A DNA stretch of 64,000 bases from assembly GCA_046563655.1 (NCBI GenBank), contig CM102287.1, positions 5,766,001-5,830,000 on the forward strand. Direction: 5' to 3'. This stretch comes from Yuukianura sp. NJ FZ-2021 (lineage: Eukaryota). Positions within the stretch are counted from its first letter, which is position 1; the number at the start of each line of letters is the position of its first letter. The position numbers and the translations under genes were made by a program. Positions 10,401-60,324 of this stretch are shown piece by piece. The notes beneath the pieces are model-generated. The model searched no databases, was not told the DNA's origin, and saw only the letters and a program-made list of their open reading frames with translations.

Positions 10401-10603
10401 AGAAAACCAAAAAAAAGTTGGAATTCATGGTGAATAGTGAAACTGATCCTACAGCTTCGCAGATCCAAAAGGTCATGGGTCGGGACCAGCGTAGGTCGTT
10501 GATAAACACATCAAATATTATATTGACAAAGTAGTGTGTACTAATTTAAGAGATGTATCTGTATTTAATATAAAATATAAACTATAACATCTGAAAGTGT
10601 GAT

Positions 10604-10673
10604 CACCCAACATGGAATCGAACCCAGGTCACTGAATTCATGTCAGGTGCTCTCACCACTGAGCTATTGGGCA
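10604..10673 (-). pseudogene. tRNA-derived sequence (tRNA pseudogene or SINE head)
   Basis: Minus strand tgcccaatagctcagtggtgagagcacctgacatgaattcagtgacctgggttcgattccatgttgggtg has an A box (TAGCTCAGTGG), a B box (GGTTCGATTCC) and a pairable acceptor stem. The T stem has two mismatches and U33 is absent. Confidence 0.65.
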
Positions 10674-32260: not shown

Positions 32261-35200
32261 TTAGTAAGAGTAGGTGTACTTGGGGGCGGAGAAACTAGTT
32301 GAAAACACTGCTGCTGGTGCATGAGCCTTAACCACTTGCTGAACTGGAGCTGCCTGGGCATAAATGGCTGGCCCGGCTGGTTGAGCGTAAACGGCTGGAG
32401 CGACAGCTTTTACGACTGGAGCTGGCTGGGCGTAAACGGCTGGAGCTGGCTGGGCATAAACGGCTGGAGCTGCATGAGCATACACGGGTTGAGCTACGGT
32501 CTTTACGACTGGAGCTGGTTGAGCGTAAACGGCTTGCTGAGCGTAAACGGCTGGAGCGACTGCCTTTACGACTGGAGCTGGTTGGTAGTAAGCTGGAGCA
32601 ACGGCTTTGACGACTGCTGGTTGAACGGCCTTCACAACAGTAGCGCCGGTTCGGTCAACAACAGCGTTGAAGCCCTGCAATCAATTTGCCAAAAATCAAT
32701 TACAAAAATTCAAAATACTCAAAAAACTGTATGCTGTCAATATTTAATAAAATTTTGAATAAAAACCTAATTTTACATAACACTCACGTTGATTGGATCA
32801 GCAGTGTAAGTGACAGTACGGATGGCTCCATCAGGTTCGACCAAGGAATACTGTCCCTTCACAACATCTCCGTCTCTTGTTTCCTATAACATTCCAATTA
32901 CTTCAATTTCAGCAAAGATCAAGAAAAATTCTGTCTTTGACCTAAGATGACTTACAGATGCTGATTTTTGATCTCCTGTAAGTCCATCTGAAACTGAGTA
33001 GGAATAGGAGTAAGCTGGATTTGGGTCATAGGGCTCTGCGACGACATTTTTCACAGCGACTGGAGCTACGGCTTTGACGACATGTTGTGGCTGGGCATAA
33101 ACAACTGGCTGCGCTACCTAAAAAATTTTTTAAAGGTATTTGTTTACTAAATTGCTTTATTATTTCTCTTAGGTTTTCAGTGTGCAACTTCGTTTGACAC
33201 CTCACGCGTGCACTTTTTCTGCACAAATTGGTTAAATGAAGCTTATTTCTCAGTAATGCAACCATTTTTTAAAGTTTTAGTTTTCACTCAAGTCGCGAAA
33301 ACACTTTTCTTTAAATTGCAACTGAAAGAATAATTGCATTGATATTCTGAACATTTTGCACTAAAATTTCCAAATTACTTTCATTTGTTCATATATTTTT
33401 TTGAAACTTTATCTGGTTTGATTCAAATAAAAAGTCCAGCTTATGCTAAATCAAGCCAACTTCGTCAAGATTCTGAAGTTGTTAATTTTTCTTTGAAAAA
33501 GAAGGCCAAAAAATATCCTATAACAATTCATATTTTAGTTTAGCTTTCGTTAAAAATCAAAAAGTCAAAAAATTGTATGTATTATGTTAACAATTTTAAA
33601 TCTTCATTCTATGAATGAAAAACTCCCTAATTTTGAAAATAGAAACTTTTGTTATAATGAGCTTAGCGAACAGTTCGAATAACTTGTTCTTTTCTTGGAA
33701 ATCGCCTCGCAGTGTGGTATTTTTTTTAAAACAGAAAACACAAACTTCGAACCCAAAAATTTTAAACTTAAACAATTGATTTCTCAAAAGTTACAGTTCA
33801 AAAATTACCTTAACTGCAGGTTGAGCATAGGCAATAGGCGCTGGTGCAGCAGCTACCGTCTGCATCAAAAAACGTAAAAAATTAGCATGACCTCTTGACC
33901 TTTTACTTTATGTTAGGTCATGTCCTTTCATCATCATCCGTATTTGTCTTATTTCGGTTTTTATTAGGTTAGGTTAGGAAATCTTTCATGACCTAAGCGT
34001 CTTTAGAAGCTATGTTTACTCTTTTTTGAATTAAAGAGCCTTTTATTTTTAAAACCTAAAGAGGACAATTTTTAAAATTTAAGGAAATGGAAAATTGAAC
34101 TTTCATTTTATAAAAATTTCCTGGAAGAACGCTTTGATCATTGGGATGGAACGGAAGAGACAGAACCAGAAATGGCTCTGAGCCTCTGGTCGTCTGTCCT
34201 ACGTGTGTTTTCCCATTTCACTTTCCCCTGCTCAAAGAAAGCCAAGAAATTGAATTATTTGGCTTGTTTAGTTCTGGTGCGGAAGTTCAGACAGGACCAA
34301 ATCCCCAGTGTAAACAAAGATGAAGTGGAGGAGGCAAACAAAACAGAGAGGAAAAGGCTACAGCACTGCGGATGGGACCTTGTGCCAATTCATGTAGCCA
34401 TAGAACCACCTTTTCCACTGACAGCCGGATACCCGCATAAGAGAACTCCACATTTATAATCATTATTGGGGATCATGACTCAAGAAGAGGTCAAAGGTCA
34501 ACTTTTAAGTGACACTTTTAGATACAAAACCCTGATACAAAAAGAAAAACTTTTTACATTTCTCACTGTTATGTCTTGGATTAAGGTTAGGATGGACTCG
34601 TAACCCTAATGACGTTAAGGTAAAAGCAGGGCTGCTGTAAGGTGAAAGTTTTCGGAAAACTGAGACCTTTACGTTAGGTTTGGCCTAACTTAAACCGCCA
34701 ACATCAAAAAACTCTTTCTCCCTGTACTCGAACTTTTTTTTTGGGTGAAAGTTCTCTGTGCTTGTCAGCGGAGTTGCCGGAAGAACAGTGCAAAAAATTG
34801 GCACAATGGGATTCCGGAAGAGGTTGGCAAAAGTTCTAAAAATAGCAAATGCAGTACCAACGCTACAGTACAAACTTTGTCCAGAGATGTTACGCGTGTC
34901 GCCGATCACAATGCGAGAAACCCCAAAAGTATTTTTTTATACGTAAAAAACGGAAAGTTCTTTGAGAACGAAACTGAAATTTGCAAAATCGTCAAGAAAA
35001 AAACCGGGTAATAGTTTTAGCGGCATAAAAGAGCGCCGAATTTGCAAGTGAAGGCGCTATATGAAATGTACTCACGTTATACGATTGGTAGTAGGGCTGT
35101 TGGTAGTACTGTTGAGGGTACTAGAAATCATTAAGGTAACAAACAATAAGTTATACTTTTCATTTTACCAATTCTGCACCCATTTCGCAATAATGTTCAC

Positions 35201-39709: not shown

Positions 39710-40360
39710 ATGCAGTCGGTAAGTCCACTTCCATTTCTATCATGGAAGCAACCAACGGGAAGAAGAGTTTCTCAAAAAAGAGTGATGAAACATATATCAA
39801 AACGTTCTTTTTGTTATAGATTGCCGTGTTCTCACTCTGCGTTGTCGCCGTGGCTTCATACACGACCTACCAACAAGCCCCACCAGCCTATGGTGGCTAC
39901 GGAACCCACCATGGATATCAGTCTAAGCCTAACGTGGGAGTTTCCTCAGCCACATTCTTAAACGTACCAGCCCCACAAATTGTTCGGCTCCACCATGAAA
40001 TGAGAGAGAATGTTGCCAACAATGTCCAGTAATTTGACAATTTCCATAAAAAATCTCCTATTTTGAAACATTTTGTTGAAACTCTATAGGAAGTTTGCGA
40101 AGTTTTAATCACTGAATATCCGAACTCTTTCTAGATACGAAACGACCAACGGCATTCGATCCGCCGACAACACTCAAATCCTTCCAGGAACTCCAAACCC
40201 CGAAAATCCAAGTGAAATGTGGAACAAGATTGCCAAATCCGGATTCTACGCCTACACTTCCCCTGAGGGAAAACCAGTCGAGATCCACTGGACTGCTGAT
40301 GGAATCAACGGATTCAGAGCCACCGGAGACGCCATTCCCACTGCCCCACCAGCTTATTAA
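39710..40360 (+). CDS. Cuticle protein, RR-1-like chitin-binding domain, 147 aa, 3 exons
   Basis: Exons 39710-39718 (MQS), 39820-40028 (signal peptide IAVFSLCVVAVAS) and 40135-40360. Contains YETTNGI...GFYAYTSPEGKPVEIHWTADGINGFRATGDAIPTAPP. Confidence 0.88.
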
Positions 40361-40822
40361 CACAAAAGCCACCACTTCCGCAACCGGAAACAAAACAACA
40401 AAGTAGCAATTGCTACACTTTAATATATTTTTGTACCGAAATTTTTTCATTCTAGAAGAATTTATGCTACTAGAATTTAATTTTTTAATGCTCTAGAAAG
40501 TCCAATTGAAAATTAAACCGAGAAAAGTTGTTTCTATTGAAGTGTTTGTGTGGGTGGGCATAATGTGTGGTTGCTGGCCTACTTTGATTTTGTTTACATG
40601 ACCATCAAACCTTCGTGTAAAAATGGAAGTGACACTTTGTGGAGAGTGTAACAATACCCCGGAAAACGAAGGTGACAAACAGCCTCTTACCTGCACTTGT
40701 GCCACTTTAGACTTCCGTACCATCACTTCGAGTCTGCAGACCAATTGAATTGACCTCATTCTAGTCACCGTGCACTGATTCAATTAGAAGTCCTAACTGG
40801 ACTTTGTAAATCGCTAGAAAAA

Positions 40823-42277
40823 ATGGACGGATCGCTTCGAATTCTTAAGCACTTGATGCTTCTGTCGCTGATTATTTCGTTATCCAGTGGGTATAAAAAC
40901 TCTGGTCGACGGCGTCATACGTTACGGCACCATACTTTACATAAACGTAAGTCAAAATTTGAAATTTCTGTAGGACTTCTTAAAACTTTGTTAAAATTTG
41001 ATAAATCAAGCGTTTCAGGCCTTAAAATTGTTAAGATTGAGCATACGCAGGTTACCAATTCATAGCTTTTTAAGACAGCGATGTTGATCTTTTTCAAAAT
41101 ATTGTCAAATCAAATCGTTTGGCAAAAAGTTTCTTTATCCAGAACGCGTTACAACAACACAACCGCCATTTCGAGTTACTACTTTGGCGTTATACCCAGA
41201 TGAATCTCAGGAACTAATGGAATCTACAACTGTAACGGAACGCTTAACTAACCAGGACAAGTATATTGACGAGGATGATCCGTCACCACGACCGAGTTGA
41301 GAATTGACCAAAAAAAGAATTCAACCTCTGACATTTTTGATCATTTTGAATTGATAATTGTTGATTTTGAATTCAAGGGAAAGTTAGGAGCTCCCCAGCT
41401 CCAGCACCAGAGTCTAACGAATATTTCGGAAAGAGAGACAGGATGAATCAGAGAAAACGTAGGTCTAACAATTACTTCCAAATTGGTCTAATGTTAGTCC
41501 TTGATTAATGGTTTTTAGGAGAGGTCAGAAATGAAAGGCCAGTGAGACAATTGGAAGAAAGTGCAGACGAGTGGGGTGGAATACAGGGGGAAGGTCGCAG
41601 TTTTGGGGGTTATGGAGGTGTGGTGGCTTCAAAAGTTTCAGAGCATCAGAGCAAAACTCCATCATCGCCGAAGTCGGGAGATGAAGCTAAGCAAGCAGCA
41701 AAAGAAAAAGCAGAAGAAGGTGCTCGCAAAGGTATGAATTTTACAAATTCCTAAATTCTTGAAAAAAAATCGCTCAGTGATGTGAAATGGTAAAGAAAAA
41801 TCTTCTAAAATTTCGATTTAAAAATCACATCGATATATGAAAGAACTGAAAAATTCTAATAAACATTGGCCTCTTCCAGGCAGAGCTGTCGATCAAGACC
41901 AGCATAACAGGAGAGCCGAATTCTTAGAGGAAGAAGACCAAGAACTTTCTCGGGAAGCACGGAAAATATCTAGCGAAGGTAAGCAAAAAGTGTTAACAAT
42001 CAAGGCTGAAGTTAAATTTTGTAAACCCACATAATCTAGTTATAGTTAGTTGAACTTTGTCCTCTTCTTGACATTTCAGAACACCATCACGGGCACGGCA
42101 GACATCACGGAAGTCATCACGGACGTCGCTCAAGGCCTAGACATGGATCAGGTCATGACATCTCACAGGAGAGTCACAGCGCAGAATACGGATCTGGTAA
42201 GATTTTAGTTTTGAAAAATTGGGAATGTTTTTTCACAACTTTCTTTTACAGATGAAGGATACCATCATCGGAAGTAA
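40823..42277 (+). CDS. Unrecognised secreted low-complexity protein (prohormone-like, His-rich C-terminus), 270 aa, 7 exons
   Basis: Exons 40823-40946, 41143-41295, 41378-41458, 41519-41731, 41880-41978, 42080-42196 and 42252-42277 join via six phase-1 GT-AG introns into one 813-nt ORF. N-terminal hydrophobic stretch LMLLSLIISLSSG. No known domain recognised. Confidence 0.8.
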
Positions 42278-42353
42278 GCAATCGGACGGTGTAGGACAGA
42301 GTTTCGGATTTTGTGCAGTTTAATTTGTTTACATTGTTAATCTTACTCACTAA

Positions 42354-42362
42354 TTTATTAAA
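42354..42362. terminator. Overlapping poly(A) signals of two convergent genes
   Basis: tttattaaa contains AATAAA on minus (42354-42359) and ATTAAA on plus (42357-42362), between stops at 42277 and 42370. Confidence 0.5.
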
Positions 42363-42369
42363 ATTCAAT

Positions 42370-45080
42370 CTATAAGTTATTGTTCTGCTGTGGCTGCTGT
42401 GGGTCCATTGGGCGTTTAGAAATTCTATGAATAGAGAGTCTGTGCAATTGGTCCACTACTGTCTTCCGACGTACTGTGAGTCTGTGCGTTTCTTCAGAAA
42501 GTTCCTTCACTTGTTCTGCCAGTGGTTTGCCAACAGTTTCCGTCAGAAGAAATGACAGCAGCGCTCCGAGTATTCCAATCAATCTAAAAATCAAATCCAA
42601 AGTTTAAAAATTCAAACAAATTCAAAAAGTTTCGAAATTCGGTGATTCTACCCAAAAACAAAGTAGGGTACTGATGGATAGTGAGATCCAAGGAATGCCA
42701 ACTGCGGTGCCAGTACTCCACCCAAAGCAGCTCCGACGCCTCCAAGTCCCGATCCCATTCCTGAAAAAAATTGGAATCATCAAAAGACACACTGCGGAAT
42801 GGGTTTTCAGAATTTCAAAAACTGGGAATTTTTTGGCGAAATTTCAGTGAAAATTTTACCTCGAACTGCAGTTGGATACAGCTCTCCAACGAGTGTTCTA
42901 GCGCAGCTTCTTCCGCCTGCTACACAAAACTTCCCTAAAAGACAGAGGACGATGACCATCGTAGGAAGTGTGGCCAATCCAATACTTATTTCCAGAATAG
43001 CCAAGGCCACGAGAAAAGAAGCGCCAATTGTCATGTACAGAGCTAGGGAAGTTCGTCGGCCCAATCTGTTCAAAAATATGCTTTTAGAAAAACAAGTTCT
43101 ATTCAAACTTTTTCAAAATGTTGTCAAATTACTACACATGCCTGTTGCAAATAAGAAGAGCTGAGGGATATCCAATGGCGTCACTCAATCCAAGCAGCAT
43201 CACGATTAAATATGGACTTCCAGCCATATTCTTAACGTTGAAGCTAATTCCATAGTAAGTGATAGCCGATGCTGCCATGATTAGAATCTGGAGTATTGTG
43301 CCGTACCGTAGGGTTTCGTCTCGGAAAAAGTCAATGTACCCGAATCGCTTGACCGCTGAAGAGTCATCTGGTGGCGATTCTTTGTCAGCTATAGCTTGAA
43401 TTGTTTCTAGCTCAATATTTTGCTTTCCGTTGAGTTTTGCCATGTACGTAAGAACTTTATGAGCGTCGCTAACTTTTTGGTTTCTGATGAGCCAACGCGG
43501 ACTTTCTGGAACAAATCTAGACTCAAAAATTAATTTGTTAGTGAAAATGATTAAATTCATTAGAATAAAATGAAATTCAACTTTTTACGGAAAAATGACG
43601 ACGAGGAGTAAGAACGGCATCGTCGTCACTCCTGTGAGCATTCTCCAAGGTCTAATTAAGTAGGCCAAGAGAGCCAACAGCATCACTCCTTCACCCCAAG
43701 GCCCCACCGAGCCACAAAGTGGGCGCCATCTTGCAGGTTGGAATTCTATGGCATACGCTGAAGTTACGCCCAAGTAACCTAAAATTAATCACAATTTTTA
43801 AAAATGTCAATTTTTAGTTCAACTTTGCTAAACTTGAGGATGATGTCATCCACAACCACAAGTCCCATTATAATACAATTCTCTTCGGCATGAGCTTGAA
43901 ATTGCTTCACAAATAATTCAAACCAAACATATTCCTAAAGAATATCTTAAGTTAAAAATAACTTTGTTGTTAAAGTTTGTAAATTTTTTTGGTTGTAATT
44001 TAGAGAATGAAAAACGAAACCATATTTTCATATTTTTCTGAAATTGGCAAATCCAGCGTAAATACAATCCAGTTTAAACTAACTTCAGATGATATTTTCA
44101 GCGTTCGAAGATCTTTGCGTTGTAAAAGTTTTTGAATATTTGTTTCATTTTTCCTTTTAGAGTTCCAGGAGGCTTTGAACGTTTTCCAACAAAATTCTAT
44201 TTTAAAAGGTATTGAAAAAGCTGGATACGGATACCTGAGAGGCCCATGCCGCTGAAAAACCGTGCGGCGGCGTATGAATATGGATCGAACGCCAACGCCG
44301 ACAATCCTTGTCCAAGGCCCATCAAAATGGAAGTTCCAAGAAACGTGTAGCGACGTCCATACCAATCTGAGAGCTTACATGCAATTAAATTCCCAAGCAG
44401 CATTGCCAGCATCTGACCACTTGTAATGAAGTCTGATACCCATCCAGTGCTGCAGACCAAATTCCACTGAAAATTAGAAACAGAGGATTCAAGTTAAATT
44501 TGGAGTTTTTTTTTTCACTTTTCAGATTTTTAGAAAATACTGTTCATCCATTTTCCAAAATTCTTTAAATTTAATAATCTTACTTCTGAGACAATTGACT
44601 CTGCATATTTAGAAGTTGTGGAGTACGGTTTGATCGTTGAATTGCATTGACAAATATCTTTAAACGTGTATTCCTTAGTTTCATTTCCGCAGCTCCATGT
44701 ACCAGGATAGCTTCCTAAAAAATATAAAAAAAAAACACAACTTTAAAAATAATTCTGAGATATCAAATTTTCTCAAGTCCAAAGTGAAAGTCAGAGCAAA
44801 AGTGAAAGCTCTGCTTAAATTAAAAGTTCGAAATCCAAACTCAAACAATTCTTCCAACAAATTTTTTTTCTGCGTGTGAAAATATAAAACTCGCATCATT
44901 ACCAACGAATACTGGCGTGAACGACACGAATGCTGCTGGAATTTCCAGGAACAGTAGCAGCACTAATGATAAAAACTGAAACGGTCCGAATCCTCCGAGT
45001 TGATCTAAGATGTCTTCAAAATTTTCCGCCACTTTGTCTCTACTGGACCTTGAAGTAATTGTTATCTTAGTCATTCCCAT
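42370..45080 (-). CDS. SLC22 organic cation/carnitine transporter family (MFS), 544 aa, 8 exons
   Basis: Exons 45080-44903, 44714-44584, 44466-44235, 43778-43589, 43516-43142, 43065-42860, 42760-42652 and 42583-42370. Motifs FEDILDQLGGFGPFQ, SIVSEWNLVC, LSDWYGRR, PESPRWL, ELYPTAVRG and LTETVGKPL. Confidence 0.93.

Positions 45081-48229: not shown

Positions 48230-60324
<12,095 letters not shown>

Follow-up and report, generated by a model that had tools for sequence, protein, structure and literature searches.

An orphan seven-exon gene beside a cuticle-protein gene of Yuukianura sp. that may encode a secreted, disordered matrix protein

The stretch of DNA analyzed here comprises 64,000 nucleotides of Yuukianura sp. 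NJ FZ-2021 (GenBank assembly GCA_046563655.1, contig CM102287.1, positions 5,766,001 to 5,830,000 of the forward strand). We will refer to it as the window, and all coordinates are positions within it. At 40823-42277 of its plus strand lies a gene of seven exons, referred to below as the candidate, whose 813-nt coding sequence (assembled from the three-frame translation) specifies 270 amino acids (aa) followed by TAA. A preliminary description had taken this orphan gene for the precursor of an amidated arthropod peptide. The reading that we favor, tentatively and at somewhat less than an even chance, is a lineage-restricted, secreted and disordered matrix protein, probably associated with the cuticle, rather than a folded enzyme or a hormone. 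The exons are the following:

40823-40946, plus strand: exon 1, 124 nt; ATG in AAAAAATGG context, signal-peptide-like residues 1-23 (40823-40891), donor GTAAGT
41143-41295, plus strand: exon 2, 153 nt, phase 1-1; acidic, Thr/Pro/Asp/Glu-rich, net charge -5
41378-41458, plus strand: exon 3, 81 nt, phase 1-1; (R)KVR-SSPAPAPESNEYF-GKR-DRMNQ-RK(R)
41519-41731, plus strand: exon 4, 213 nt, phase 1-1; opens with the RxxRxxR run EVRNERPVR
41880-41978, plus strand: exon 5, 99 nt, phase 1-1; acidic Glu/Asp/Gln segment with RR and REARK
42080-42196, plus strand: exon 6, 117 nt, phase 1-1; His-rich block, ...GSHH-GRR-SRPR..., three S-x-E
42252-42277, plus strand: exon 7, 26 nt; ends ...GYHHRK-TAA

The six introns measure 55-196 nt and are all of the GT..AG type (donors GTAAGT, GTTGAG, GTAGGT, GTATGA, GTAAGC and GTAAGA). 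With 0 Cys in the translation, the clean, Cys-free ORF (open reading frame) of seven exons and 270 aa that had been described was thus borne out by exon assembly, as were the coordinates of exon 3 and the RKVR-[13-mer]-GKR that it encodes. Every intron is in phase 1 and each internal exon (153, 81, 213, 99, and 117 nt) is divisible by three, so any internal exon could be skipped with the frame kept; since the exons show no similarity among themselves in a self-BLAST, recent exon duplication does not account for the cassette-like layout. After the signal-like part, exon 1 continues with the basic, His-bearing segment YKNS-GRRR-HTLRHHTLHK; exon 2 is the least low-complexity part of the protein; and exon 4, beyond its opening run, is Gly/Ser/Lys/Glu-rich, with one GGYGG and a helix-prone Lys/Glu end. 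Exon 3 is bounded by an acceptor reading ...gaattcaag, followed by GG, and by the donor GTAGGT, and its guanine-plus-cytosine (GC) content is 0.47 vs. 0.27 and 0.32 in the flanking introns.

Judged by GC content and intron stops, the locus looks like a genuine protein-coding gene. Exons (GC 0.38-0.55) and introns (0.25-0.32) are completely separated (Mann-Whitney P=0.0006), and an unspliced reading of any of the six introns runs into a stop 2-40 codons in, so that only splicing keeps the frame open. No earlier ATG occurs in the open frame, and the start codon stands in a Kozak-like, A-rich context; at 40756 there is an initiator-like TCATTC, and ATTAAA at 42357 resembles a polyA signal. With a codon table drawn from a small training set (918 codons from neighboring Pfam-hit ORFs), the model frame obtains the top score among the six frames in five of the six exons tested, the His-rich exon 6 being the miss. 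These scores remain low (0.03-0.10 bits per codon vs. 0.16-0.32 in the training ORFs), and that of exon 6 is negative. That the spliced ORF is an accident of reading, or the locus non-coding or decayed, is highly improbable: the lack of a homolog and the barely positive, in exon 6 negative, codon scores would be in keeping with it, but the full GC separation, the canonical introns with a stop in every read-through, the frame intact across seven exons, the Kozak-like first ATG and the success of the model frame in five of six exons argue against it.

Residues 4-24 form the sole hydrophobic stretch of the protein, with R6 and K9 near its start and Ser-Ser-Gly at positions -3 to -1, followed by Tyr24. 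By rule of thumb, this N-terminus is signal-peptide-like and the protein is predicted to be secreted, which agrees with the earlier claim. Residue counts over the 270 aa include 31 Arg, 30 Ser, 29 Glu, 23 Gly, and 20 His. The mature part (247 aa) contains 45 Lys and Arg (18%), 42 Asp and Glu and 19 His, with an isoelectric point of 9.0; charged residues amount to 35%, order-promoting ones to 15%, and Glu, His, Arg and Gly together (E+H+R+G) to 40%. It is predicted to be intrinsically disordered because its mean hydropathy (0.32) lies below the charge-hydropathy boundary (0.418). AlphaFold2, applied to exon 4 as a single sequence, gave a mean pLDDT of 59.6 and a pTM of 0.16, with one helix (residues 53-68) at the Lys/Glu-rich end. 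Net charge by exon runs, in order, +6, -5, +5, 0, -4, and +1. Like charges cluster locally beyond shuffles (0.078 vs. 0.048, P=0.0007), and long-range charge patterning (SCD) does not differ from that of the shuffles (P=0.43). The tail (residues 224-270, the last 47 aa) bears 13 His and reaches 66% E+H+R+G, and the protein contains no N-glycosylation sequon.

All the basic sites previously listed (GRRR, RKVR, GKR, RKR, RPVR, RR, and GRR) are present. The candidate 13-mer SSPAPAPESNEYF is encoded at 41389-41427 and is flanked by convertase-type sites, namely RPRKVR upstream (R at P1, P4 and P6, the first Arg of RKVR being split over the exon 2/3 junction) and G-KR downstream, with GKR at 41428-41436. 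This tripeptide is an established convertase and amidation signal. It is also stated as such in the introduction of a paper available in part (PMC7294237).

For a comparison of motif frequencies, the mature part was shuffled 20,000 times, both globally and within 30-aa blocks, and the outcomes agree. The count of dibasic pairs shows no enrichment (11 vs. 8.0 expected, P=0.14). R-x-[KR]-R does not occur in the mature part (0.62 expected), and R-x-x-R occurs seven times vs. 3.5 expected (P=0.04). At least one G-[KR][KR] is found in 51% of the shuffles; the candidate has three vs. 0.67 expected (three or more, P=0.025), in YKNS-GRRR, NEYF-GKR, and GSHH-GRR. When a hydrophobic residue is demanded before the Gly, one remains vs. 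0.10 expected, and at least one appears in 10% of the shuffles (P=0.10), so this hydrophobic-Gly-dibasic motif is real but mildly above composition. Furthermore, a basic site occurs about every 15 residues, so that hardly any Gly-dibasic would be without a cleavage site close upstream. The three Gly-dibasic motifs and the local charge clustering would also fit a blocky polyampholyte matrix protein. Neither internal repeats nor paracopies of the peptide were found by self-BLAST, which returned the identity only. The strongest non-random motif of the protein is not a processing site: it is S-x-E, present eight times vs. 2.9 expected (P=0.004; P=0.0014 with 30-aa block shuffles), which is the consensus of the secretory-pathway kinase (Fam20C motif).

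The orphan status proposed for the gene was upheld by searches of different kinds. Pfam recognized no family in any of the six exon translations compared (E<=10), and sequence and feature searches with exons 4 and 2 gave no relative. Exon 4 (70 aa) yielded 131 word candidates among longer proteins, none at E<=0.01, and 0 matches at E<=0.001 by phmmer against 1,835,955,588 representatives; exon 2 (50 aa) yielded eight candidates among longer proteins, none at E<=0.1. The ESM Atlas gave no usable match with exon 4 (recognition 1530), and the PDB gave 0 at E<=1 with exons 4 and 2. These large protein sets were queried by those two exons singly, and not by exons 1, 3, 5, 6, and 7 or the spliced protein; exon 3, with its 26 aa, is too short for a query of its own. 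Within the window, tblastn of the spliced model finds no paralog but only itself (best other E=0.71). An ORF of the neighboring sugar transporter, a conserved family, matched a single protein among 517 candidates, at 61% identity, and on this account the empty searches are weak evidence. The source lineage is poorly represented in the protein sets, which hold neither the source species nor its close kin.

The neighborhood provides the functional context of the candidate, with these features:

39710-40360, plus strand: R&R cuticle-protein gene, 3 exons (39710-39718, 39820-40028, 40135-40360), 147 aa
42373-44493, minus strand: MFS sugar-transporter gene, Pfam Sugar_tr/MFS_1 on ORFs 42810-43112, 43135-43584 and 44200-44493
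32264-32680, minus strand: Ala/Pro/Val/Tyr-repeat ORF, 139 aa; PAVYAQPAP-type repeats, ends ...KYTYSY; no Pfam family

The R&R gene carries Pfam PF00379 (Chitin_bind_4; E=2.1e-11, 44.4 bits vs. a cut-off of 25), has its first intron after codon 3, inside the hydrophobic N-terminus, and ends 462 bp before the ATG of the candidate on the same strand. This domain supports the arthropod origin that had been assumed, and the Atlas match of the transporter agrees with it. The repeat ORF, 8 kb upstream of the candidate, is of a kind that we take to be typical of cuticle proteins (their low-complexity part), and it points, along with the R&R gene, to a small cuticle-gene group. No further R&R exons emerged: none of the 84 ORFs compared (the repeat ORF and 83 others, 38-61 aa long, in 30.5-40.2 kb) has a Pfam family at E<=0.01. 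The Pfam survey of the window covered 246 of its 265 stop-to-stop ORFs of at least 62 aa, the other 19 lying from 57.3 kb to the window end, and revealed no immune-type neighbors. The transporter is convergent with the candidate, with 95 bp between the stop of the latter and the end of the last open frame of the former. PolyA-like signals for both strands fall within one stretch of about 40 bp (42324-42362) between the two genes, whose 3' untranslated regions must therefore overlap or be very short.

If the candidate is a matrix protein, the epidermis would make it together with the neighboring cuticle protein, as a component of the extracellular matrix. The signal peptide would be removed after Gly23, leaving a polyampholyte chain whose alternating basic and acidic blocks could bind electrostatically to the chain itself and to other matrix proteins. 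As happens in His-rich cuticle proteins, the His-rich tail, along with the Tyr residues, may take part in cross-linking of the quinone/laccase type or may bind metals, and the S-x-E serines may be phosphorylated on their way through the secretory pathway. RKVR, GKR and the other basic clusters would be a by-product of the Arg/Lys-rich, blocky composition; in this sense, the arginine-rich make-up largely explains the hormone-precursor look. The His-rich tail and the adjacency to a cuticle gene, which were not weighed in the preliminary description, favor a non-hormonal secreted protein. In this as in the other readings considered here, we infer the steps from sequence to function from what was observed, that is, gene structure, composition, motif statistics, and neighborhood.

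Several points weigh against a cuticular matrix protein. The epidermal origin is inferred from position alone, and adjacency counts for little where the genome is compact. No chitin-binding domain was detected by Pfam in the six exon translations (E<=10), and the protein has a single GGYGG and is without the Ala/Pro/Val repeats usual in cuticle proteins. Its mature part contains 40% E+H+R+G vs. 92% in the beetle protein TcCP30, and its gene has seven exons vs. one. The three Gly-dibasic motifs exceed composition (P=0.025), and a purely structural reading leaves them unexplained. An FTZ-F1-type site (YCAAGGYCR) is absent from 7.8-43.0 kb, and hence from the surroundings of both the candidate and the cuticle gene, which is uninformative on shared ecdysone-type regulation.

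Among known cuticle systems, the closest description is that of TcCP30 from Tribolium castaneum, which, in the part of the paper available, is a Cys-free, disordered protein of 171 aa with a signal peptide and without an R&R motif, encoded by a single exon and composed of E+H+R+G to 92%; despite having no domain, it is a major laccase-cross-linked component of the cuticle (PMC4440208). As far as that text describes it, TcCP30 shares with the candidate the signal peptide, the lack of Cys and of R&R, the predicted disorder, the Glu/His/Arg/Gly polarity and the charge blocks. The candidate approaches this composition in its tail only (66% E+H+R+G, 13 His in 47 aa), and differs in its 40% E+H+R+G overall, its Ser richness, its 270 aa and its seven exons. 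The likeness, compared by description, is thus an analogy of composition and would imply neither membership nor kinship. The His-rich cuticle proteins of lepidopteran scales are given, in the accessible text, as containing 6-45% His and being cross-linked with N-acyl-dopamines by laccase 2 (PMC8062583); His makes up 7.7% of the mature candidate and 28% of its tail. One of them, BmorCPR152, bears the name of the CPR family (PMC8062583), whereas the candidate has no R&R domain. Membership in the CPR cuticle proteins was considered and rejected, PF00379 being absent from the six exon translations (E<=10) when the same method detects that of the neighbor at 2.1e-11.

The same secretory and disordered features would suit some other fast-evolving secreted protein (salivary, seminal-fluid, gut-lumen, or a mineral-associated phosphoprotein), beside which the cuticle gene would lie by coincidence; we consider this possible though rather doubtful. 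The S-x-E excess (P=0.004) is what substrates of secretory-pathway kinases, such as acidic matrix phosphoproteins, would display, orphan status is in line with fast evolution, and introns all in phase 1 with symmetric exons are known from modular extracellular proteins; however, nothing in the window points to a particular tissue, its sole functional context being the cuticle gene 462 bp upstream. A host-defense peptide precursor, from which a furin-type protease would free cationic His/Arg/Gly-rich fragments (e.g., ...HHHGHGRHHGSHH, ending Gly-Arg-Arg) that bind metals or membranes, is quite improbable. In its favor, the His/Arg/Gly-rich block in exon 6 is bounded by REARK and GRR-SRPR; the three Gly-dibasic motifs are unusual, and Gly/His-rich antimicrobial peptides exist in arthropods. 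Epidermal "neuropeptide-like" antimicrobial peptides are also described from nematodes in the partly available literature (PMC2453101, PMC11993903). Yet the predicted fragment, which has Glu and Ser as well, would carry no strong positive charge at neutral pH, tandem copies are absent, no relatives were found, and the surveyed ORFs of the window offer no immune-type neighbors.

The neuropeptide or peptide-hormone precursor of the preliminary description, to be cut at RPRKVR and GKR and then processed by a carboxypeptidase and the amidating enzyme to SSPAPAPESNEYF-amide, is unlikely. Its Tyr, with Glu at -1 and -4, could be sulfated, and YKNS-amide and a His-rich ...GSHH-amide could be further products. 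As an undescribed arthropod hormone precursor whose 81-nt exon 3 would be a peptide cassette for a possibly Tyr-sulfated ...ESNEYF-amide, and whose His tail would yield a second amidated product or else act as a granin-like domain for pH/metal-dependent sorting and aggregation into dense-core granules, it is decidedly unlikely. To our knowledge, a tail of 13 His is unusual for prohormones, and the peptide, which matches no named family, begins with SSPAPAP, a half that resembles a Pro/Ala/Ser linker. The signal-like N-terminus, the acidic spacers between basic clusters, the excess of G-[KR][KR] (3 vs. 0.67, P=0.025) and of R-x-x-R (7 vs. 3.5, P=0.04), and a 13-mer set between R at P1/P4/P6 and Gly-Lys-Arg within one symmetric exon all speak for a precursor, but dibasic pairs are not enriched (P=0.14), the hydrophobic-Gly-dibasic motif arises in 10% of the shuffles with an upstream basic site almost guaranteed, the peptide is single-copy without paracopies, and, no relative having been found, nothing shows that the peptide is the conserved part. 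The three features that the available text of PMC7294237 names for single-copy peptides (a signal peptide, flanking convertase sites, and a C-terminal Gly) are present, and count in its favor; against it, genes nominated as "neuropeptide-like" by motif have turned out otherwise, as C. elegans nlp-29 did according to the partial texts (PMC2453101, PMC11993903). Altogether, the orphan, secreted and arthropod parts of the earlier interpretation stood, and its prohormone part is a possible, weakly supported one.

The candidate was also compared with named peptide families, and the earlier statement that no arthropod neuropeptide family was recognizable holds for those considered, EFLamide and sulfakinin/CCK. 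In the latter, a sulfated Tyr in acidic context is followed by a ...G-H-M-R-F-amide (or G-W-M-D-F-amide) core; Tyr108 of the candidate has Glu at -1 and -4, but the peptide ends in Y-F-Gly and the core is absent. Kinship of the EFLamide/TRH type was considered for its E-[aromatic]-[hydrophobic]-Gly, and was rejected because NEYF-Gly, present once, departs from the strict [ST]EFL and no IDLSR occurs. As far as the accessible text goes, arthropod EFLa peptides are strictly [ST]EFL-amide, in 1-18 copies; in Hemiptera and Locusta, EFLa is joined by splicing to an IDLSR-like Proh-4 peptide; and the EFLa preprohormone of Pyrrhocoris apterus is supported by brain-specific expression and orthologs (PMC7294237). 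From the same portions of that paper, this preprohormone and the candidate are alike in having a signal peptide, one short peptide between convertase sites and a terminal Gly, and also in giving the peptide its own small exon (117 bp in P. apterus, 81 nt here); they are unlike in that the candidate ends in NEYF-Gly and has no IDLSR-like stretch. The words EYFGKR, NEYFamide, EYFamide, and NEYFG were found nowhere in the published literature searched, and the YFamide neuropeptides in the portions of that literature available are from an annelid (Platynereis) and an echinoderm (starfish) only, with no arthropod among them. The proteins of the NLP-29 type are Gly/Tyr-rich and much shorter than the candidate. 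C. elegans NLP-29 was named neuropeptide-like, yet the available parts of two papers describe it as an antimicrobial peptide that the epidermis secretes to the apical matrix (PMC2453101, PMC11993903). As far as these texts describe them, proteins of this type are small, secreted and Cys-free, which is a caution for motif-based calls, although they come from another phylum than the candidate.

Should the hormone reading be true, the gene would represent a new arthropod ligand family from a lineage barely covered by public proteins, and an orphan receptor would have to be sought for it. Should the matrix reading be true, it would be one more polar, His-rich, domain-free protein among the "hypothetical" cuticle and secreted matrix proteins, a class so far little charted; this would be ordinary but useful for annotation. 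Besides, an aromatic residue followed by Gly-Lys-Arg, with a basic site upstream, is expected by composition in about one in ten Arg/Lys-rich disordered secreted proteins, and calls based on it therefore need conservation, expression or peptidomics first.

Other features of the window are a transfer RNA, further Pfam-supported exons and a set of repeat copies:

10603-10673, minus strand: tRNA-Ser (anticodon TGA); no other Rfam match in the window reaches the gathering score
18649-18873, minus strand: BORCS8 (BLOC-1-related complex subunit 8) exon, Pfam 3.9e-06, the sole Pfam match in the first 31 kb
49046-53402, minus strand: protein-kinase exons, Pfam, best 2.2e-18 at 51225-51488
55813-56239, inverted: copy of a repeat of about 420 nt
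56466-56886, direct: copy of the same repeat
57778-58200, direct: copy of the same repeat
58685-59087, direct: copy of the same repeat

The kinase exons suggest two genes, or one with a duplicated domain. A promoter and terminator scan was set aside, since it relies on a bacterial consensus, irrelevant to a eukaryotic locus. The repeat copies belong to a nest at 55438-59474, within the portion of the window that is richer in GC (0.49), in which the unit of about 420 nt is present in at least four copies of 91-97% identity, and arrays with 14/21/28-nt spacing occupy 56894-57383 and 59077-59307. Long open frames in this nest (up to 313 aa) are probably repeat-derived and not genes. The YCAAGGYCR half-site occurs nine times between 1327 and 59794 vs. 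3.3 expected, a number reached in 0 of 100 shuffles; since five of the nine sites lie in the repeat nest (56-60 kb), the repeat copies probably account for this surplus.

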